Positions 27,641 through 64,000 are shown, counted from the stretch's first letter. The stretch is DNA of 64,000 nucleotides from an uncultured Gammaproteobacteria bacterium (GCA_964390595.1 CAYMIA010000001.1:59981-123980); one strand, 5' to 3'. Translations and numbers: made by a program. The notes: a model not told the origin generated them from the letters alone.

Positions 27641-28399
27641 ATGGCAACATTCACCACCAAAGAAATTGATATTCATGCTTTTCAAGCAGGGATATTTATG
27701 GCAGAGGCAGACTTAATTTCCCCTGTCGTGGTCGAGGAAACAGAGCATCCAGATATACCTCAAAGACTAGAGGATTTCTATGCAGCAATGAAGCGCCATC
27801 TTGATCACTGGTCTTCTTATGCTAGTGCAGCAGGAATTGGTCAATACTCACTGGTAACAGGTCAACCTGCTGGAGCTTTAGCCAGAGTCGATTCATACTT
27901 TAGAAACCCTACTGGAAGAGAAATGTTCGAGGATTTTCATAATTTTGGGGAACAGGTGATGGGTCCAGCTGTATTAGAAACCACTGATGAGCAAAGAGAA
28001 CAATTTAAAAATAATCTGGTCTTTAACTTCCTTGGCGAAGATTTTTACTTTGTCGGACCTCCTCGACTAAGGCGAACAGTTTTTTTAACTAGAGTCTTTC
28101 CTGGGAGTCTTCCACCTGATATCTCAGAATTCATCAGAGATATCGAAGGTATCAGTCAAGCTGATGAAATGATGACAACTCAAGGTTATCATCTATTTCA
28201 TGCGATAGATGGAAGGATGATGCATTTACCGTTTAGAGAAGCTACGGATTATGATCCGACAAAATTGACTTACTTTGGACAAATGAGAATGGAACGGAAA
28301 AGACTACTATTTTATCCACCAGATGAAAATAGGGTTGTTGATTTTACTCAAGCTTTCAGGAGAACCGCGTCTGACACTGGGGTGAGCGACGGGATTTGA
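27641..28399 (+). CDS. hypothetical protein
   Basis: 252-aa ORF. Its last codons overlap the 3' end of tRNA-His on the opposite strand. No motif recognised. Confidence 0.4.
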   Translation: MATFTTKEIDIHAFQAGIFMAEADLISPVVVEETEHPDIPQRLEDFYAAMKRHLDHWSSYASAAGIGQYSLVTGQPAGALARVDSYFRNPTGREMFEDFHNFGEQVMGPAVLETTDEQREQFKNNLVFNFLGEDFYFVGPPRLRRTVFLTRVFPGSLPPDISEFIRDIEGISQADEMMTTQGYHLFHAIDGRMMHLPFREATDYDPTKLTYFGQMRMERKRLLFYPPDENRVVDFTQAFRRTASDTGVSDGI

Positions 28400-28453
28400 A
28401 CCCGCGGCCATCGGTACCACAAACCGGCGCTCTACCACTGAGCTACGCCCACC
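28378..28453 (-). tRNA. tRNA-His (anticodon GUG) with encoded G-1 and CCA
   Basis: Hand fold on the reverse complement. Extra 5' G(-1), acceptor GTGGGCG/CGCTCAC (one G-U pair), discriminator C, encoded CCA, D-arm GCTC-AGTGGTA-GAGC, anticodon loop TTGTGGT (anticodon GTG), T-arm GCGGG-TTCAAAT-CCCGT. Confidence 0.8.
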
Positions 28454-39951: not shown

Positions 39952-40024
39952 GCCCCCATAGCTCAGTGGATAGAGCAGGACGGTTCTAACGTCAAGGCCG
40001 CAGGTTCGAATCCTGCTGGGGGTA
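39952..40024 (+). tRNA. tRNA-Arg (anticodon UCU)
   Basis: Acceptor GCCCCCA/TGGGGGT, D-arm GCTC-AGTGGATA-GAGC, anticodon stem GGACG/CGTCA (27-43 mismatch) with loop GTTCTAA (anticodon TCT), T-arm GCAGG-TTCGAAT-CCTGC. The layout matches E. coli argU. G32 is unusual. Confidence 0.65.
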
Positions 40025-43217: not shown

Positions 43218-43289
43218 CGGGGTGTAGTTCATCGGTAGAACGCTCGCTTTGGGAGCGAGAAGTAGTGGGTTCAATTCCCTCCACCCCGA
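43218..43289 (+). tRNA. tRNA-Pro (anticodon UGG)
   Basis: Acceptor CGGGGTG/CACCCCG is a perfect 7 bp. D-arm GTTC-ATCGGTA-GAAC, anticodon stem CTCGC/GCGAG is perfect with loop TTTGGGA (anticodon TGG, G37). T-arm GTGGG-TTCAATT-CCCTC has one U-U mismatch. Confidence 0.7.
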
Positions 43290-45684: not shown

Positions 45685-45766
45685 TGCTGGCGGTGGGATT
45701 CGAACCCACAAGGTCTAAGACCATTGGATTTTAAGTCCAACGTGTATACCATTCCACCACGCCAGC
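45685..45766 (-). tRNA. tRNA-Leu (anticodon UAA), class II with long variable arm
   Basis: Acceptor GCTGGCG/CGCCAGC is perfect. Anticodon stem TTGGA/TCCAA with loop CTTAAAA (anticodon TAA). Variable arm GGTC-TTA-GACC. T-arm GTGGG-TTCGAAT-CCCAC. Discriminator A. Confidence 0.8.
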
Positions 45767-51019: not shown

Positions 51020-51090
51020 TGCGGGATCGTTCAACGGTAGGACAGTAGACTTTGGATCTGCTTATCATGGTTCGAATCCATGTCCCGCAG
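51020..51090 (+). tRNA. tRNA-Gln (anticodon UUG)
   Basis: Acceptor TGCGGGA/TCCCGCA with U1-A72. D-arm GTTC-AACGGTA-GGAC. Anticodon stem GTAGA/TCTGC with loop CTTTGGA (anticodon TTG). T-arm CATGG-TTCGAAT-CCATG is perfect. Discriminator G, as in bacterial tRNA-Gln. Confidence 0.7.
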
Positions 51091-55726: not shown

Positions 55727-57043
55727 TTAGAAGAAGGCGATTGGAGTGCCTATTTTGTCAGTACTAAATTTTTTAACTATAATATTTCCGCTCTTAACGT
55801 CGATAACTTCCCAATTATAACCATAAGGTTTAACTAGTGATAAACTGTAATACAAAAGGTATTCCTCATTTGTAGAAAAAATGACGGTTTGGGGTACATC
55901 ATTAAGATAAGCAGTTCGATTTGTGTCAGAATTATCGGTCAGGCCAGTACTCGATACTAATCTGCCATCCTGTGAGTAAATGTTTAATCTCTCGTCATTG
56001 GGGACTGGTTGAGATTTCAAAAATAGTGCTAGATATTTATTAGTTGGTGACCAAACTCCTCCCGGAACTAGCTCAAATCTAAAATTTGGAGGATTATCTA
56101 AGTTGATTTGAGTTTTAGGTTTAGCTAAGTCAGCAAGTGAATATATTTTTATGGTTCGAGAGGAATCTAAGTCGCCTTGATTACTGAGGGAGATTACATT
56201 TTCCTTGCTTGGACTAAAAACTTCTTTGTGGTTAGGATCAATTAGCGGTATGTCAGTTTTTTTATTTAAATCAAACAGATAATATTTCTGATCAGTATGC
56301 CCAATGTTTTGATTATAAGTTACTATGTTTTCGCTTTGATCATAATAAAGATTTCCCAGAATTGGGGCGTTTTTCTTAAATAATATTTTGGGGACGAGGG
56401 TGGTAGCATCCATTACCCCAACGGCTCTTTCGGTTACTGTTGAGGAATTGATGTTTGGATCATTGCTAGCCACGAAAACCAGACTTTGGTTATTTGATGA
56501 CCAACCAGCAAAGAGGATATTTGAATAGCCAGTGGCTTGAATGACCTTGGGGGTATTTAATTGTTTTAAATTTGTGCCATCAACGTTAGCGATATACTGA
56601 TCAGCTCTTAAGTTACTGGGGTCAGTAATATTTTTCATGGCAAAAATTAGTATTTTGGAGCTATCTGGAGAAGCAACTGCACTAATATATGTGTCTTTAT
56701 CTGGTACTAAGTTAGTGTTAAATGTCTGGATATTTTCTCCTTTGGTATCAGAAATTTGCAGGGTTGATCCGGGCTTTCTTGTGGAGAATAGGATCTTATT
56801 TTGAAAGGCTAAATGTGGTGGAATAGTTGGTATAGGAGCTTGGGTTGGTAGCACCTCGGTGTGGTTGGCAGTTTTTGGTTGATTATTTTTTTGACCAATT
56901 AGTTCAGGGTGAGAGTTCTTGATATACAAAGATCCACCCACTATTCCAGCTGACAGAACTCCGATGATTAACAAGAAGATCAGGGTAGCAAATCCTTTTT
57001 GGTGCATTAGTATTAGTTTTGCACAATCAGTCAATAAATCCAA
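55727..57043 (-). CDS. secreted WD40-like/TolB-like beta-propeller protein
   Basis: 438 aa with an N-terminal TM/signal. Repeated beta-strand-rich segments with a periodic YxS/DG..I pattern. The call rests on composition and periodicity only. Confidence 0.4.
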   Translation of the reverse strand: MDLLTDCAKLILMHQKGFATLIFLLIIGVLSAGIVGGSLYIKNSHPELIGQKNNQPKTANHTEVLPTQAPIPTIPPHLAFQNKILFSTRKPGSTLQISDTKGENIQTFNTNLVPDKDTYISAVASPDSSKILIFAMKNITDPSNLRADQYIANVDGTNLKQLNTPKVIQATGYSNILFAGWSSNNQSLVFVASNDPNINSSTVTERAVGVMDATTLVPKILFKKNAPILGNLYYDQSENIVTYNQNIGHTDQKYYLFDLNKKTDIPLIDPNHKEVFSPSKENVISLSNQGDLDSSRTIKIYSLADLAKPKTQINLDNPPNFRFELVPGGVWSPTNKYLALFLKSQPVPNDERLNIYSQDGRLVSSTGLTDNSDTNRTAYLNDVPQTVIFSTNEEYLLYYSLSLVKPYGYNWEVIDVKSGNIIVKKFSTDKIGTPIAFF

Positions 57044-57093: not shown

Positions 57094-57648
57094 ATGACAA
57101 AAAGATTGATGCAAACTTTTAAATATTGGTTGCCGCTGGCGTTTGCTACCACGGCCGTTTCTGGTTTAGTTTATGCTACTGTTCAGCAAAATTATAGGCA
57201 ATCAGCTAATGATCCCCAAATTCAAATGGCAGAGGATGCTGCTGCATTGCTGTCAAATGGGATCGATCCTAAAAGTTTGGTAGCTGAGAATAAAGTGGAG
57301 ATATCCAAGAGCTTGGCTCCATATATCATAATTTTTGACAGCCAAGGAGTGGTTTTAGCCTCTTCTGGACAACTGGATGGAAGAGTACCAACTCCTCCTA
57401 GAGGTGTGCTCCAATCTGCAACTAGCAAATCGGAGAATAGAGTAACATGGCAGCCTAGAGATGATGTTAGGGGGGCCGCTGTAGTGACCCGTTTTGAGGG
57501 AACAACTTCAGCTGGTTTCGTTTTGGCGAGCCGCTCGCTCCGGGAAGTTGAAGTTCGGGAAAACCGGTTAACATTTACAGTCGCTGTTGCCTGGGTTGTC
57601 ACCATGCTAGGAAGTTTGCTCTTGATATTTTTTCTTTCGGTCTTCTAG
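57094..57648 (+). CDS. membrane-anchored hypothetical protein (N- and C-terminal TM)
   Basis: 184-aa ORF immediately upstream of the primase-like gene. No motif recognised. Confidence 0.4.
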   Translation: MTKRLMQTFKYWLPLAFATTAVSGLVYATVQQNYRQSANDPQIQMAEDAAALLSNGIDPKSLVAENKVEISKSLAPYIIIFDSQGVVLASSGQLDGRVPTPPRGVLQSATSKSENRVTWQPRDDVRGAAVVTRFEGTTSAGFVLASRSLREVEVRENRLTFTVAVAWVVTMLGSLLLIFFLSVF

Positions 57649-57760: not shown

Positions 57761-60556
57761 ATGACTATGATAGAGGGCAAACACAAAGACCTTTGGGGTC
57801 ACCAAGTCGCATTTGATACCGCTTTATTGGAGCGGGTTCCAAACCCCTCCCGCAGATTTCAGGATTGGGTAGAGTCGGCTATGCATGATTACAAAAAGGT
57901 GGTTATTCCTGCAGACAGTGAGACCGGAAAACCAACCGAGCGGATAGTTAATAGCAGCAGGGTTGATATAGCGGTTAGTGCAATTATTCAAAAAGGGTTG
58001 GCAGATAGCGCTTTGGAGGCGTTAAGTTATCTCAATGGGATGCTCGCCGATTTTAAACCAACTACTTCCCGGATCGCTAAGCAAGATTTTGACAGACGGG
58101 GAAATTCAGAGAAATGGCGGTTGATAAGAGAGAAGGTTGGGGAAACACCTAAACCCAAAACTGATACCACTCACAGACAACATGGGACTTTTGGGCATGT
58201 CGCTATCGCTGATATTTTGGCGAATATCATGACCAATAAGGAATCAGCTGTTCAGCCCAATTTGCCGCTTGTTTTAGATGGACAGCTGTCGTTACCAGGA
58301 GATTTTGGGGTTCCAAAAAGGGTGATTGATTGGGACTATATGACTGAGTTGGATCAATATCTGGGGGAACTGCGAACAATATTAGACCAAAATACTGATG
58401 GAAAGTTGACTTTTACTCGGGCAACTTTAGCGAATTTTGTAGGGAATAGGTTAAGTGAGCATTTAAGGTCAGTCTATGGAAATGAGCATATGGATAAGAT
58501 TAGATTCAATGGCGATCCAGGCCGGAATCATTTAACTGTATATACTTTGGCAATTTGGGGTGGCGCAGCTAAGTTCGCTTTAGGTTCAGATGCCCGGATA
58601 CTTTTTTCCGAGCTAGCTCCATGGAATGAAAAAGCCCACACTTTTAAAGGACGGCCGGTCAATGTTGGGCGGATGGATGCGGTTGAACTGACTAGTTTAA
58701 GTGGTCAACCTTTGTCAAATGAACAACTCAGAAGAGCCAGGCAAATTGTTCGGGAGCACCCTCGTAATACAGAGGAACTGTTACGTCATTTAATGGGTAC
58801 TTTTAATGGTAGTCTGGATCTTAGTCAAGATCTCAGGATCATTGATTTTAAAATGGGTTTCGGAGATGGTTCACAAAAAAATCAAGTTATCTATGCCAAT
58901 CAAATTGCGGAGGGGCCATTTCCAGATCATGCCCGTCAAATTCGTGATTACGCGAGCAATGCGACACTTGCAGCTTATGAAGTTATCCGGCAAGAAGGCC
59001 GGCCAGTCCCGGAAAACTGGTGGGACTTGGAGGCGTTTAATTTTGCCTCTTTGTGTTATTTTTTGCACAGTGATGATGAACCAGTTGATCATTGTGAAAT
59101 TGTGACTCCAGACCAAAAGAGAGAATATGCCGAGAGAAGAGCAGACAGGTTGCCTGTTGTGCAAAGAAAGGCTGATATTAGAGATACAGATAATTTTGTG
59201 GCTAATTATTTGGTTGGAGTGTTAGAAAATAGGGCGGTAACGCTACCGGTTCGGGCCTTGCCAATGCAAATGGAGGGTGTAACTGCGGTTTCAGAGATCG
59301 ACCGGCTATATGAAAGCCGCCGGGTTTTTGTTGATGGTCAAAGGATTGTGGAAGAAGTTGGGGGTAGAAACAGCCGGTTTAGGGTGATGCATGTCGATAC
59401 CCTAATTAAGGCGATTAACAGTGGAGATATCGAGACAGGTTATTTTGGTCTCGACCGTGGCGGAATGATTAAATGTTTTTTGCCTGAGCATGGAGGAGAA
59501 GATGATACACCTTCTCTATATTTGTCGATTGACAGGGGAACTTTTAAATGTTTTGGCCGGTGTTCAGGTATCCCGCCTTTTAGAGGAGGTGGCCGGTTTG
59601 CTATGGATTCTATTCCAGAGAATTTGCCAGAGATATCTGAGCAGTTTAGGTCTAAATACTTTAGGGGAGAGCGGGCATCAGGAACTGAACCAGACCAAGA
59701 TCACTTGAAATTTATGCGAGATGCTCAGGAGGTTTTTACCCGGGCTTTTAGAGATAGCCCAGCTCAGGATTATTTGACCCAAGTTAGGAAAATTGATGCT
59801 GATTTAGCGGCTGCTTATGGAGTAGGCTTTGCTACTGTCGGATCAATTAGACAACTGCTTGAAGCCTATGATTTGGACTCTCTTATTAGATATGGACTAG
59901 TTGGTTACTCGGAGTATAAAGGTAGGCGGGGGAGTTTGTATGGATTGTTGAAATATAAAGGTTATAGCGATGCAGACATTGTCAAGGAACACCTGGTGAA
60001 GAAAGGCATCATTGATAATCATTATCCTTATTTTATTTTGGATCAAACTGCGACTTTCCCCTTAACTTTAGATGCTTCCCGGATCAATAGTTTTTATGGC
60101 CGAACCGTTAATGAAACAAATAAGCGGTTTGCTCACCGAAAATTAAGGTTGGCCGACCATGGTGGCTTTAATATGGGCGTTTTAGAGAGCGGTTACGATG
60201 AACTAATTATGGTGGAGGCGCCCATTGATGGCTTAAGTTTTATTCAAATGGGTTTAGAAAATACAGCCGCATTAATTGGAGTGAATAATGAATTTATCTT
60301 AAGGCAAGTGGCTAAATCAGGCAAAGCTCTGGCTTTTTCATTAGACAACGATCCAACAGGCCGGGATGTGACGGCTCATCTGATATCGCATATGGGCCAT
60401 ATTAATCCGTCGCTTCGAACCCGAGACTTTACAGCGGCGTTGAATGACGCTTTTTACGAAGGACTATGGAGTAATCCAGTCAATTGGAAAGATGCTAATC
60501 ATTTGTTAACAAATTATGGACCGGATGTTCTGTCAAATATGCGTCTCGCCGCTTAA
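57761..60556 (+). CDS. DnaG-type primase core (zinc-binding domain + RNA-polymerase/Toprim domain) fused to a 560-aa N-terminal domain of unknown function
   Basis: 931 aa. Around aa 560-600 there is a CHC2-like zinc finger (IKCFLPEHGGEDDTPSLYLSIDRGTFKCFGRCSG). The DnaG linker follows (AQDYLTQVRKIDADLAAAYGVGFA). Next is the RPD N-subdomain (ILDQTATFPLTLDASRINSFYGRTVNETNKRFAHRKL). Last is Toprim (DELIMVEAPIDGLS ... FSLDNDPTGRD). The first 560 aa have no match I can recognise. No C-terminal DnaB-binding domain. Confidence 0.7.
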   Translation: MTMIEGKHKDLWGHQVAFDTALLERVPNPSRRFQDWVESAMHDYKKVVIPADSETGKPTERIVNSSRVDIAVSAIIQKGLADSALEALSYLNGMLADFKPTTSRIAKQDFDRRGNSEKWRLIREKVGETPKPKTDTTHRQHGTFGHVAIADILANIMTNKESAVQPNLPLVLDGQLSLPGDFGVPKRVIDWDYMTELDQYLGELRTILDQNTDGKLTFTRATLANFVGNRLSEHLRSVYGNEHMDKIRFNGDPGRNHLTVYTLAIWGGAAKFALGSDARILFSELAPWNEKAHTFKGRPVNVGRMDAVELTSLSGQPLSNEQLRRARQIVREHPRNTEELLRHLMGTFNGSLDLSQDLRIIDFKMGFGDGSQKNQVIYANQIAEGPFPDHARQIRDYASNATLAAYEVIRQEGRPVPENWWDLEAFNFASLCYFLHSDDEPVDHCEIVTPDQKREYAERRADRLPVVQRKADIRDTDNFVANYLVGVLENRAVTLPVRALPMQMEGVTAVSEIDRLYESRRVFVDGQRIVEEVGGRNSRFRVMHVDTLIKAINSGDIETGYFGLDRGGMIKCFLPEHGGEDDTPSLYLSIDRGTFKCFGRCSGIPPFRGGGRFAMDSIPENLPEISEQFRSKYFRGERASGTEPDQDHLKFMRDAQEVFTRAFRDSPAQDYLTQVRKIDADLAAAYGVGFATVGSIRQLLEAYDLDSLIRYGLVGYSEYKGRRGSLYGLLKYKGYSDADIVKEHLVKKGIIDNHYPYFILDQTATFPLTLDASRINSFYGRTVNETNKRFAHRKLRLADHGGFNMGVLESGYDELIMVEAPIDGLSFIQMGLENTAALIGVNNEFILRQVAKSGKALAFSLDNDPTGRDVTAHLISHMGHINPSLRTRDFTAALNDAFYEGLWSNPVNWKDANHLLTNYGPDVLSNMRLAA

Positions 60557-60802: not shown

Positions 60803-61408
60803 ATGAAATTAGGATATAAAGTTGGTGCGATGTTATCAACTGGAGCCTTGCTGGCTTCTGTTTTTGCTCCAGTAGCTTTTGCTAGCAGTGATGTGACCGT
60901 TTCAGGAAATGGTGCAGGTTCAACAAGTATTGTTAATGTATCCGGTGGAACTAGCGGTGGTGGAAGTGTTACTCAAACTAATAACACAACCGTGCTAACT
61001 ACGGTCAATGCTTCAAGCAACACAGGTTATAACCAATCTAATGCTAATACTGGTGGGGGTGTAAGCACTACTACCGGATCCGCTACAACAGGCGTTAACG
61101 TTTCAGTTGCAGGTGGTACAAATGTGGCAACAGGTACTGATTGTGGTTGCGCAACAAACACCAATACAGTCAATGTTCTTGGTAATGGAGCTGGATCTCT
61201 CAATTTAGTTAATATTTGGGGGAGTAAAAAAGGTTCTTCAACTAAACAAACAAATAATGTATTTGTTGGTGTGGGAGTAAATGCAGGATCAAATACTGGT
61301 TACAACCAGTCAAATGCAAATACCGGACCTGGTGGAGTCACCACAGCAACTGGTGGATCTACAACTGGTGTAGGAGTTAATGTGACGGGTTCAACAAACG
61401 TCCATTAA
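60803..61408 (+). CDS. secreted Asn/Gly/Thr-rich tandem-repeat protein (two repeats of about 85 aa)
   Basis: 201 aa with signal peptide MKLGYKVGAMLSTGALLASVFAPVAFA. Repeat 1: VSGNGAGSTSIVNVSGG...NASSNTGYNQSNANTGGG...VNVSVAGGTNV. Repeat 2: VLGNGAGSLNLVNIWG...NAGSNTGYNQSNANTGPGG...VNVTGSTNV. Confidence 0.55.
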   Translation: MKLGYKVGAMLSTGALLASVFAPVAFASSDVTVSGNGAGSTSIVNVSGGTSGGGSVTQTNNTTVLTTVNASSNTGYNQSNANTGGGVSTTTGSATTGVNVSVAGGTNVATGTDCGCATNTNTVNVLGNGAGSLNLVNIWGSKKGSSTKQTNNVFVGVGVNAGSNTGYNQSNANTGPGGVTTATGGSTTGVGVNVTGSTNVH

Positions 61409-61427
61409 ATCTTTTAGTTTTTCAAAT

Positions 61428-61460
61428 AAAAGCCCCTTGGGATTCAGGGGGCTTTTTTAT
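61428..61460. terminator. rho-independent terminator (likely bidirectional)
   Basis: AAAGCCCC-ttgggattca-GGGGGCTTTTTTATT: a GC stem followed by a T-run. It lies between convergent genes (60803..61408 + and 61470..62054 -). Confidence 0.6.
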
Positions 61461-61469
61461 TCCCGAGGA

Positions 61470-62054
61470 CTATTTTTGATCAGCAAAAACTAGTAGCCTT
61501 TTAAATGAGGTACCAATTGGAGTACAGGTTTGTAAAATAAGTTGATGGGGGGATTTTGAGGTTAGAAACTCGATCTGATCTGGCCAAACAACTTTTTTGT
61601 CAGTTACTTTATAACTATATTCCTGGCCATCTTTGTATAAATTAATACTATCACCATTTTGAAGCTGTCCTAACTTAAGAAAGATGGTATTAATATAAGT
61701 TAAGCGCCAAGGGGCATTTGAAGAATGAGCAAATAAATAGATCGTGCCGGCATCTCCAGGTAGAGCTGTTCCTTTGGCTTGAGCGACGCCTTTTTCCAGG
61801 GCAGCGTTGTATTCTGACTCATTCCAAGGATTGACATCTGGGATAACTTTGGCTTCGGCCTGAATCTTGGGTATAGAGATGAAATAACCCTGATTAGGGA
61901 GATGGGGATTTAATCTAGGTGGAAAGAGATAAATTTTGATGACCGGAAGGTAGATTAAAAATATTCCTAGCACAGCTGCTAGCATGAGGGTATTTCCCAA
62001 CAATTGAATGGGACTTTTTTTAACCCTTTTTCTGCTTGCGGAGGATTTATTCAT
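61470..62054 (-). CDS. sortase (transpeptidase)
   Basis: 194 aa with an N-terminal TM anchor. Catalytic His context (IYLFAHSS) and TLxTC motif (LILQTCTP). Confidence 0.75.
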   Translation of the reverse strand: MNKSSASRKRVKKSPIQLLGNTLMLAAVLGIFLIYLPVIKIYLFPPRLNPHLPNQGYFISIPKIQAEAKVIPDVNPWNESEYNAALEKGVAQAKGTALPGDAGTIYLFAHSSNAPWRLTYINTIFLKLGQLQNGDSINLYKDGQEYSYKVTDKKVVWPDQIEFLTSKSPHQLILQTCTPIGTSFKRLLVFADQK

Positions 62055-62068
62055 TAAGTAGGAGAATT

Positions 62069-63265
62069 TTAGCGCCGTGCTCTGGCATATGCAACCCAGC
62101 CAGAAGGGGTTGAAGAATTTAGTCTTAAATGTAGACCAATGAAGAATAGACAGGCAAATAAAAGACTAAGGATTAATAACTCGTTGTTTCCAGTAGAGGG
62201 GAGAATCAGACCCGTCGTAGTTCCAAGTACAGATGGGCTTCCTCCTGAAGAAGAGCTGCCTGAATTTGTTGTGGTAGTAGTGGTGTTGGTTGTAGTAGTA
62301 GTTGGTGGTGTTGTTCCGCCCGAAGGGGGTGAACCAGGGGGAATGGATCCGCCTGGAGGTGGGGGAGGAGTTGTTGACTGGCAACAGGCAATAACAATCT
62401 GGCTCCCATTTAAATTAAAATTAGCAATAATAGTGTCTAGCATAATATTGCCAGTGTTTATCCAAACAGATCCGTTATTATTTGATGCAGTGTTTCCTCC
62501 GGTGTTGGCGTTGTAGAAAATATTGTTCTTAAGTATTAAGTTGTTAATAACTGAGATCGTATTATTGGAATTGTTATTTGTGATGACATTATTTTTTGAT
62601 CCAGAACCATTGCCGGATATTTTGATATCTGATATGGTCGAATCTGAGGAAGGAATGGAGATAGCGGACTGATTGATGTTGGTGTTAATAATTTGATTGT
62701 TAGCCGAGATATTGCCCGTATTAATGGAAACACTTCCATTGTTATTGTTGGCATTGTTTGAACCAGTATTAGCCGATCCGGAGATGTTGTTTTGAATAGC
62801 AGCTGTTTGATTGGTAGTCACAGTAGTTTGAGCTGTTTGATTGACTTGAATGCTGTTTTGGGAGTTTGAGCCATTGCTTGTCACTGCAACAGATGTATTT
62901 GCAGAAGTCGGGCAACAGTTTTGCTGAACTGTCGAAGTATTGAGATGATCGTTGCTGACTGTGGTATTGGAAGTTGAAGCACCAGTTTGTATTTGCGTCG
63001 AGAGCGGCTGGCTACCGGAGGAATTTGCTGTGTTGTTTGACGCGGTATTCGCTCCAGTATCAGAAGTCCCAGAAATATTGTTATTGATCGAAGATTGGTT
63101 AGATTGACTGGTAGTTGACGAGCTAGGTTGAGAGACAGTCACTTGAGTATCTGAGTTTGATCCATTGCCAGAAACCACAATTTCCTCAGCGAATACCACC
63201 TTAGGAGAACCAACAAAAAGTAATATAGATAGAATATTTACAATAATTAGAAGTCTGCTCTTCAT
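62069..63265 (-). CDS. LPXTG-anchored Asn/Ser/Thr-rich repeat surface protein (sortase substrate)
   Basis: 398 aa with a signal peptide. Repetitive SGNGS...ANTG.NTASNN motifs. A Pro/Thr-rich stalk (PPPPPGGSIPPGSPPSGGTTPPTTTTT) is followed by LPSTG, a hydrophobic segment and a basic tail (ARARR). Confidence 0.7.
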   Translation of the reverse strand: MKSRLLIIVNILSILLFVGSPKVVFAEEIVVSGNGSNSDTQVTVSQPSSSTTSQSNQSSINNNISGTSDTGANTASNNTANSSGSQPLSTQIQTGASTSNTTVSNDHLNTSTVQQNCCPTSANTSVAVTSNGSNSQNSIQVNQTAQTTVTTNQTAAIQNNISGSANTGSNNANNNNGSVSINTGNISANNQIINTNINQSAISIPSSDSTISDIKISGNGSGSKNNVITNNNSNNTISVINNLILKNNIFYNANTGGNTASNNNGSVWINTGNIMLDTIIANFNLNGSQIVIACCQSTTPPPPPGGSIPPGSPPSGGTTPPTTTTTNTTTTTTNSGSSSSGGSPSVLGTTTGLILPSTGNNELLILSLLFACLFFIGLHLRLNSSTPSGWVAYARARR

Positions 63266-63275
63266 TCTAATTTTT

Positions 63276-64000
63276 TTATTTCTTTTTAATAAAACTGATT
63301 AAATTAATAATTTTTTTACCAAAAACTAAGAAGATAATTATAGGTAAGGAGACAACCAACCAAGCTAAGTTAACTGTCATTTTGGAATTTTCAGAGTTTA
63401 TTAGGCCACCTGCTAGAGGATTATTTGAGCTTTTGTAACCAGCTATTTGGACGTTATTGATGCTGCTCGCACCTAAGACATTATTTGGTGATGAGGCATT
63501 TCCAGCTGAGACTGTCGTTTGAGTTTTAGTAATACCGATGACCGTCGTAACAGGTGCAGGATTTGGAGTAGATAATACGACAACTGTGTTGGTGCCAGCT
63601 CCGTTTGAGTTGTTTTGTTGGCCACCCTGAGGTGGGTTTTGGCTGCTAGAGTTGGCGGTTTGGTTGGTGGTTTGTTTTTTCATGCCTGGAGTAACGAAGT
63701 CGCCAATCCAACTTCCGAAGACATTGACAACGGTTACAATTAACCGACCATTACCTTTGATATTGTTGTTGACGAAGTTGACAATGTTGGCGACAATTTT
63801 GGCATTTCCAGTAGTGATTGTAGAGTCACCGCCGGTGTTGTTGTTAGCTTGGTTATTACCAGTATTGGCTGAGAGATTTAAGTTATTGGAAACTTTAGCG
63901 CTGTTTGTTTGGGTGAGTGTGCTGTTGCCATTTTGATTGATGTTGGTGGTATTCTGCGAACTAGCTCCGTTTCCGCTGTTGGTCGCATTGACATTGCCAT
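63276..64000 (-). CDS. Asn/Thr/Gly-rich surface protein, 5'-partial (continues beyond window)
   Basis: The ORF track starts at Met 63683, but the frame stays open upstream to the window edge (...SNNLNLSANTGNNQANNNTGGDSTITTGNAKIVANIV...GSWIGDFVTPGMKKQTTNQ...). C-terminal TM plus KKK. The motif family is the same as the two neighbouring repeat proteins. Confidence 0.5.
   Translation of the reverse strand, partial: GNVNATNSGNGASSQNTTNINQNGNSTLTQTNSAKVSNNLNLSANTGNNQANNNTGGDSTITTGNAKIVANIVNFVNNNIKGNGRLIVTVVNVFGSWIGDFVTPGMKKQTTNQTANSSSQNPPQGGQQNNSNGAGTNTVVVLSTPNPAPVTTVIGITKTQTTVSAGNASSPNNVLGASSINNVQIAGYKSSNNPLAGGLINSENSKMTVNLAWLVVSLPIIIFLVFGKKIINLISFIKKK

Follow-up and report, generated by a model that had tools for sequence, protein, structure and literature searches.

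We analysed a 64,000-nucleotide stretch of DNA (the window) from an assembly filed as an uncultured Gammaproteobacteria bacterium (GCA_964390595.1, CAYMIA010000001.1:59981-123980), the last part of which (60803-64000) carries a sortase gene together with genes for secreted proteins built from a shared repeat. An earlier note on this DNA had reported such a cluster here; every element that it described is present at these positions, and the motif strings that it quoted were all found as written. The repeat-protein genes are named below by paralogue class (A to D). The class D gene (60803-61408, plus strand) encodes a secreted, anchorless, two-repeat protein of 201 aa and was recognised from its open reading frame (ORF), its translation, repeat domains detected with a hidden Markov model (HMM), and homologues. 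Convergent with it, the operon sortase gene (61470-62054, minus strand; 194 aa) was identified by matches to PF04203 and TIGR01076 and by its catalytic triad. The class C gene (62069-63265, minus strand; 398 aa), a sortase substrate assigned by ORF, translation, repeat-HMM domains and orthologues, lies upstream of the sortase with a gap of 14 nt. The class B gene follows beyond it; the window holds its 3' end (63276-64000, minus strand), assigned from an open frame and a collinear orthologue, and the gene runs past the window edge. A GC hairpin of terminator-like form (61433-61450), flanked on both strands by T-runs, lies between the convergent D and sortase genes; a consensus scan picked it up on both strands, and it stands as no more than a pattern match. 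No stop interrupts the frame between 63683 and the window edge, which makes 63276-64000 the 3' portion of a single long gene, in agreement with the earlier statement that the cluster runs off the window end. At least three family genes had been counted; three members are indeed present, but the third, listed as a 135-aa ORF, is only the tail of B. These results support the core of the earlier reading, namely a sortase beside a family of secreted repeat proteins, with one canonical substrate and a repeat outside known families.

The D protein starts with a Sec-type signal peptide (residues 1-27, 60803-60883) composed of MKLGYK, a hydrophobic core and AFA before SS, with predicted cleavage after AFA27. 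Repeat 1 (60881-61129), a CGC motif (61142-61150) and repeat 2 (61157-61405) make up the rest. The previous description of two near-identical 85-aa repeats without a sorting signal holds for the two repeats of ~85 aa and for the lack of a sorting signal or anchor, but not for near-identity, as the repeats share 50 identities in 82 aa (61%; ~63% at the DNA level over a 125-nt local alignment). Homologues of ~200 aa with the same two-repeat plan numbered 39 in metagenomic data and 414 in a later search.

The C protein carries a signal peptide (63188-63265) made of MKSR, a 15-residue hydrophobic core and VFA before EE, with predicted cleavage after VFA26. Its n-h-c form is of the textbook kind by inspection and by a simple hydropathy and -3,-1 check, which removes the concern that the LPSTG protein might lack one. 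Three repeats follow (62930-63190, 62666-62902 and 62405-62638), with CC motifs at residues 117 and 294, after repeats 1 and 3. Then come a Pro/Thr/Ser/Gly stalk (residues 296-354, 62204-62380), the LPSTG motif (residues 355-359, 62189-62203), a transmembrane (TM) segment (residues 360-380, 62126-62188) and a tail that ends in ARARR. C therefore has every part of an LPXTG sorting-signal protein (signal peptide, LPXTG, hydrophobic segment and basic tail) and fits the earlier picture of a largest member with a Pro/Thr stalk, LPSTG, TM segment and basic tail beside the sortase. No other LPXTG-type tail was found in the window. The sortase-adjacent gene of one related metagenomic locus (L032) encodes a protein 38% identical to C over 388 aa. 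The visible part of B comprises 240 residues, consisting of one full repeat (63756-63998), a hydrophobic motif, RLIVTVVNVFGSWIGDFVTPG (63684-63746), an N/Q/S/G/T-rich linker, a C-terminal TM segment (63318-63368) and a Lys-rich KK...KKK end, and it contains no LPXTG (63276-64000). This fragment is collinear with the C-terminus of a 737-aa protein of locus L007 (40% identity over 210 aa), through to the stop.

The sortase scores 77.9 bits against PF04203 (E=7e-22; cutoff 26.6) and 57.8 bits against TIGR01076 (cutoff 39.35). It has an N-terminal TM segment (residues 20-43, 61926-61997) and an intact catalytic triad, with His110 in LFAHSS (61725-61727), Cys177 in LQTCTP (61524-61526) and Arg186 in KRLLV (61497-61499), and all three residues are invariant among 7 related operon sortases. 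The sequence stops 8 residues past Arg186, without a C-terminal TM segment. Homologues numbered 1742 at E<=1e-20, and the closest solved relatives are class C sortases (~30% identity, E=1e-8 to 1e-11). Scores for the NCBIfam subfamilies are below their cutoffs, at 56.6 against 160 bits for class C (NF033745) and 52.5 against 165 bits for class D. By inspection, only ~14 residues separate the TM segment from the IPKI strand, the first beta strand, so there appears to be no room for a DP(W/F/Y) lid before beta1.

The repeat follows the consensus v.I.GNGA.S.N.V.V...V.Q.N.t.V.n.V...ANTGgN.An.NTGg...I.TG.A....V.v.N..N, and CxC or CC often comes after it. A single-repeat HMM detected two units in D, three in C and one in the visible part of B (domain scores 24-62 bits). 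A profile of 32 homologues, run on all six reading frames of the window, matched the three cluster ORFs and nothing else (E=2e-58, 2e-33 and 2e-9). In a set of 1.84 billion proteins this profile recovered 2401 cluster representatives at E<=1e-3, of which 881 reached E<=1e-30. GNGxxS, Q..N, ANTG.N, NTGG, TG and CxC are invariant or close to it in D homologues, and columns S40, Q58, N60, G75, G92 and N107 are invariant or nearly so across 99 sequences at ~40% identity.

The view that the repeat is not a known adhesin, pilin or S-layer domain was borne out, as no Pfam, NCBIfam or PDB family matched it. At E<=1, no Pfam-A family matched D, C, B or any of 10 other members searched. Among the domains without a match at that threshold were G5, Big and SLH, and also the collagen-like, DUF11 and SipW-dependent matrix (TasA/camelysin) families, which the earlier note had named as identities that would overturn its view. 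NCBIfam gave no match for the family members searched, the precomputed Pfam annotation of orthologues is '-', and the repeat profile found nothing among PDB sequences but a signal-peptide match at E=1.2. A literature search on sortases and LPXTG proteins of the candidate phyla radiation (CPR), Patescibacteria and Levybacteria, and on Microgenomates S-layers, found no description of the family or the operon. We propose from these sequence comparisons that the GNG-ANTG repeat (GNGxxS, Q.N, ANTGxN.A..NTG, TG.A; ~85 aa) is a new, large, unannotated family. One member, in locus L001 (10378-11166), has a His/Tyr/Asp/Trp-rich insertion (HHDGYYKYNHDDHDYWMKWFKDHYGDHNWHKY) inside its second repeat, which may be a metal-binding elaboration.

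Mean-field direct coupling analysis (DCA) was performed on aligned repeats, with 848 and then 1119 unique units (effective number ~800-1050). The strongest couplings (z up to 14) fell into three groups. One was a long antiparallel ladder (i+j ~110-112) from pair 34-77 to pair 51-60, a hairpin with ~20 residues per strand and its turn at the second NTGG. Another, at 5-18 and 3-20, was a short hairpin near the N-terminus around the GNGxxS loop, and the third joined this loop to positions 47-55 and the invariant Gln30. The coupled positions hold small or hydrophobic residues (A/V/I/S) and make up a strand face. AlphaFold2 models, although of low confidence, placed strands and the hairpin turn at matching positions in both repeats. 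Read from coevolution, the repeat is a genuine folded all-beta antiparallel domain with one long hairpin. The proteins had been called low-complexity; this describes their biased composition (74% of D consists of G, T, V, N and S) but overlooks the folded, coevolving beta domain inside. Two further structural leads were rejected. Neighbouring repeats were strongly coupled at equal positions (i-i; z up to 21), which might have pointed to in-register solenoid stacking, but these couplings were equally strong between repeats n and n+2, and shared repeat ancestry accounts for them. Fold searches with the weak AlphaFold2 models gave noise only, as in the Foldseek match to FapC (E=3.4, TM-score 0.09).

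To place the cluster among its relatives, 80 metagenomic loci were gathered through an alignment of operon-type sortases and scored with the repeat and sortase HMMs. The sortases of a close set of ~42 loci were at least ~46% identical, and the remaining sortases were more distant. A family member lay directly upstream of the sortase in 27/27 close loci with at least 1.3 kb of upstream sequence, compared with 1/25 distant ones, and three members lay upstream in all 18 close loci with at least 5.2 kb, compared with none of 11 distant ones. On the downstream side, 14 of the 31 close loci with at least 0.9 kb had a convergent two-repeat gene within 2 kb, which is the arrangement of D in the window. 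The operon order was A-B-C-sortase in 18/18 loci with enough sequence, B orthologues keeping their position in all of them. The order can be seen in L003, L007 and L008; L003, for example, encodes a four-repeat protein of 440 aa, then one of 742 aa with a TM segment at its C-terminus, an LPATG protein of 383 aa and finally the sortase. Class A proteins have ~400-530 aa, usually 4 repeats, and a conserved acidic/aromatic C-terminal tail (..N.NhhG....P....F.FDL..Lh.hL). Those of class B, at 680-820 aa, carry 4-5 repeats, with a linker of low complexity before the C-terminal TM segment, and class C proteins have 340-410 aa, 3 repeats, a Pro-rich stalk and LPXTG. The class C signal is kept as LP[ATVISK]TG, a TM segment and YLRLRSGRSP in ~30 relatives. 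Extrapolating from this operon order, we predict that gene A lies just beyond the window edge.

Other genes recur around the operon in relatives. DsbA/DsbB-like or thioredoxin-fold genes were observed near the sortase cluster (L006 465-1663; L007 2411-3067). They fit both the CxC/CC motifs conserved in the repeat proteins and an enrichment of MdbA-like oxidoreductases reported for CPR (PMC6744442). Immediately beside the operon there are also large genes of the glycosyltransferase, polysaccharide pyruvyl-transferase and deacetylase types, or else a cellulose-synthase-like gene (L007 12050-19307; L003 9323-10984), which may point to a surface island made up of both protein and polysaccharide. 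A second sortase subtype, with the motif T(M/L)YTCTGFLD(T/S)KRF, was found near D in some relatives (L001 11867-13209; L004 8676-9859), and its neighbour in L001 is an unrelated Thr/Pro-stalk protein ending in LAATG. Those genomes would therefore hold at least two sortase/substrate pairs.

In eight related loci (L001, L003, L006, L012, L014, L025, L032 and L037) D is the last, fifth co-oriented gene after genes for a TasA-like Peptidase_M73 protein, a SipW-like peptidase, an LTD protein and a HemolysinCabind protein, and in four more (L018, L027, L033 and L038) at least the HemolysinCabind gene comes before it. The common super-locus is thus A-B-C-sortase converging on D-HemolysinCabind-LTD-SipW-TasA. 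Within the 64-kb window, phmmer with the neighbouring TasA-like protein of relatives found no TasA/SipW operon. None of classes A-D matched the TasA/camelysin profile (Peptidase_M73, PF12389) in Pfam/NCBIfam, and the signal peptide of D is of the ordinary AxA type, unlike the SipW-type ...FAFFSD motif of the TasA-like neighbour. The link to a SipW-dependent matrix, raised earlier as an alternative identity of the repeat, therefore stands as synteny in relatives, where D closes the TasA-like/SipW operon, and fails as homology. The place that this operon takes upstream of D in relatives is occupied in the window by a gene (57761-60556, plus strand) for a 931-aa divergent DnaG-like primase. The primase has a Toprim_2 domain at residues 816-879, a weak match to TIGR01391 (dnaG) over 580-879 and a match to phrog_6444, and its N-terminal extension of ~550 residues is without a family match.

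Named homologues of D and of the sortase belong to Candidatus Levybacteria and to an ACD 'uncultured bacterium' from the Rifle aquifer, and many related contigs come from 0.1-um groundwater fractions. From these homologues we infer that the window is of Microgenomates (Levybacteria-like CPR) origin. One two-repeat homologue (P0227) is filed under a 'Nanoarchaeota archaeon' metagenome-assembled genome, a label that could result from mis-binning of CPR/DPANN small-cell fractions or from transfer.

The combined evidence points to a lineage-specific cell-envelope module, with C anchored to the wall, B tethered to the membrane, and A and D released and held by homotypic contacts; we put the chances of this reading slightly above even. 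All four classes would be exported by Sec, as the signal peptides observed in D and C suggest. The membrane-bound operon sortase would then cut C between Thr and Gly of LPSTG and link it to a peptidoglycan precursor; the intact His/Cys/Arg triad, the canonical sorting signal and the invariant adjacency of the two genes all argue for wall anchoring of C by this enzyme. B would be kept in the membrane by its C-terminal helix through the long linker, and A and D, being anchorless, would be released. More speculatively, A and D might be held at the surface by homotypic contacts with their anchored paralogues, perhaps fixed to them by disulfides at the conserved CxC/CC motifs. Stacked beta-repeat rods could in this way give a proteinaceous coat or short fibrils, which might serve envelope structure and/or attachment.

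Several points weigh against this module. AlphaFold2 confidence was low, with a predicted local distance difference test score of 44 with 32 sequences and 52 with 99. That A and D co-assemble with B and C is argued from the domains that they share and from synteny. The D gene of relatives runs in the same direction as the TasA-like/SipW/LTD/HemolysinCabind operon and not as the sortase operon, and its product may for that reason partner a TasA-like fibre. The Microgenomates origin is taken from named homologues and not from markers of the window contig, and the window does not include gene A or the 5' part of B. A bolder form of the proposal is that A-D co-assemble into a CPR-specific polymer, an S-layer-like coat or fibril, fastened to the membrane by B and to peptidoglycan by C, coupled through D to TasA-like fibres, and forming the main envelope or attachment structure of Microgenomates. 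We regard it as tentative and rather doubtful; if true, the polymer would be a new kind of bacterial surface architecture.

The co-orientation of D also allows a separate assignment, in which D is a TapA-like accessory or adaptor of the TasA-like fibre and no part of an A-B-C layer, at most linking such fibres to the anchored paralogues, while the adjacency of the two gene sets reflects a shared surface island. The eight loci with D as fifth gene of the TasA-like operon and the four with D after HemolysinCabind speak for it, as does the known occurrence of TasA homologues in Patescibacteria (PMC9245690). Yet D persists in the window without a nearby TasA/SipW operon, its signal peptide is of the wrong type for SipW, and its domain is common to A-C and not to TasA. 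We consider this assignment unlikely overall, though a serious alternative for D itself. An amyloid of the chaplin or curli kind, in which anchored B and C would nucleate polymerisation of free A and D into cross-beta fibres, is less probable again. Long sortase-anchored and short free members with conserved Cys pairs recall the layout of chaplins, the N/Q/G/T-rich composition and conserved Q/N positions recall curlin repeats, and AlphaFold2 did not fold the monomer with confidence. Against this, no curlin (PF07012), chaplin (PF03777) or Fap match appeared even at E<=1, and the FapC match was noise. Moreover, DCA gave antiparallel intramolecular hairpins and not the parallel in-register ladders of a curli-type solenoid, and the i-i couplings arise from shared ancestry and not from stacking.

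We consider a sortase-polymerised pilus, in which a class C-type sortase would join the LPXTG Thr of C to a Lys of C, A or D, very improbable. The nearest solved relatives of the sortase and its best NCBIfam subfamily match are indeed of class C, its TCTPxG...RLLV resembles the class C signature, and several paralogues with a sortase in one operon are the usual layout of pilus loci. However, the sortase falls far short of the class C cutoff and lacks both lid room and a C-terminal TM segment, there is just one LPXTG protein to an operon, and conserved Lys residues are missing from mature C (one column of 50% K is the best among 28 sequences) and from mature D (maximum 46% among 99 sequences), which also has no YPKN-like pilin motif. 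The earlier suggestion that the 201-aa protein is a pilin-like subunit thus found no support. Finally, the motifs might be merely Asn/Thr/Gly-rich low complexity and no domain family at all. Strong bias, seen in the composition of D and in large HMMER bias terms, speaks for such an artefact, but near-invariant columns across 99 sequences at ~40% identity do not fit it, and coevolving pairs reaching z=14 together with conserved synteny refute it, leaving it virtually no chance.

Compared with known systems, the envelope module proposed above resembles chaplins or SasG/Aap-type rods most in its logic and a pilus operon in the design of its locus. In Streptomyces chaplins (long ChpA-C with LAXTG, short free ChpD-H), as in A-D, paralogues share one small secreted domain, the long members are wall-anchored by sortase and the short ones released, Cys residues are conserved, and a joint layer is presumed. 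The two have no sequence relationship, and no Pfam chaplin match was found. Compared with the chaplin domain, the present repeat has double the length, is polar (N/T/G/S) instead of hydrophobic and is, by its coevolution, an antiparallel hairpin domain; the present system also adds a class anchored by a TM segment and one whose C-terminal tail is of a special kind. SasG/Aap of staphylococci, which form G5-E rods, likewise combine tandem all-beta repeats of ~80 residues and long strands with a sortase anchor and a low-complexity stalk, and their repeat regions interact homotypically. Here, by contrast, G5 is not matched, four differently anchored paralogues occur with a dedicated sortase, and there are only 2-5 repeats.

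Curli CsgA/CsgB share with the present proteins Gln/Asn/Gly-rich imperfect repeats with conserved Q/N, and the idea of an anchored nucleator with a free major subunit. The repeat here is 85 residues long instead of ~22, forms antiparallel hairpins instead of a parallel solenoid and has no Curlin_rpt match at E<=1; the host would be a monoderm with sortase, and so without CsgG-type secretion. In comparison with tapA-sipW-tasA of Bacillus and the archaeal bundling pili (PMC9245690), D of relatives would sit at the position expected of an accessory or anchoring factor, but the repeat proteins are not TasA homologues, the operon is not in the window and the signal peptide of D is ordinary. Pam pili of CPR are built from two-domain, Ig-like pilins of 39-55 kDa by donor-strand exchange with membrane-anchored chaperones (bioRxiv 10.64898/2026.03.03.709456). 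Like the proteins here, they are CPR-restricted secreted paralogous surface proteins that annotation has missed, and they are reported in Microgenomatia; but identity with them was rejected, because Pam pili are without internal repeats, sortase and LPXTG and are a different system (bioRxiv 10.64898/2026.03.03.709456). Class C pilus sortase loci of Gram-positive bacteria also place a sortase in an operon with substrate paralogues, and their catalytic domain is the closest to that of the operon sortase; the present locus differs in the missing lid and C-terminal TM segment, the below-cutoff score, the single LPXTG substrate and the lack of a pilin-motif Lys. The module fails the defining tests of the chaplin, curlin, class C sortase, pilin and TasA families. 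It belongs to a known kind of system, sortase-dependent surface proteins, and its mechanism is not shown to be unprecedented; what is new is the repeat domain, the dedicated minimal sortase and the four paralogue classes with three attachment modes.

Microgenomates and other CPR bacteria make up a large uncultivated share of bacterial diversity, and their lifestyle is thought to rely on surface contact with other cells. One sortase family reportedly occurs in nearly all Microgenomates (PMC6744442), and our literature search found no paper describing its substrate. The cluster probably identifies that substrate, as it supplies a single LPXTG protein together with three or four paralogues of an unannotated family. 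The family definition could seed a Pfam/InterPro entry, and A-D are candidate identities for envelope densities in cryo-electron tomography of ultra-small cells, as well as specific targets for proteomics or for expression and structure determination. Co-assembly of the paralogues, if it occurs, would mean that a monoderm cell surface can be built in a new way.

Two further genes lie beside the cluster, one for a 438-aa protein that has a TM or signal segment at its N-terminus (55727-57043, minus strand) and one for a 184-aa protein with hydrophobic segments at its N- and C-termini (57094-57648, plus strand). Neither has a Pfam, NCBIfam or PHROGs match; both may be envelope proteins as well, so far uncharacterised. 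Of 32 successive 2-kb bins of the window, 31 show a positive GC skew (up to +0.28), whatever the gene orientation; a strand composition disparity has reportedly been seen in one complete Microgenomates genome (PMC7143001). An Rfam scan of the window found no family at its gathering score besides tRNAs, the genes of which, seven in number, lie at 1736-1807, 2209-2281, 28381-28452, 39952-40024, 43218-43289, 45685-45766 and 51020-51090.

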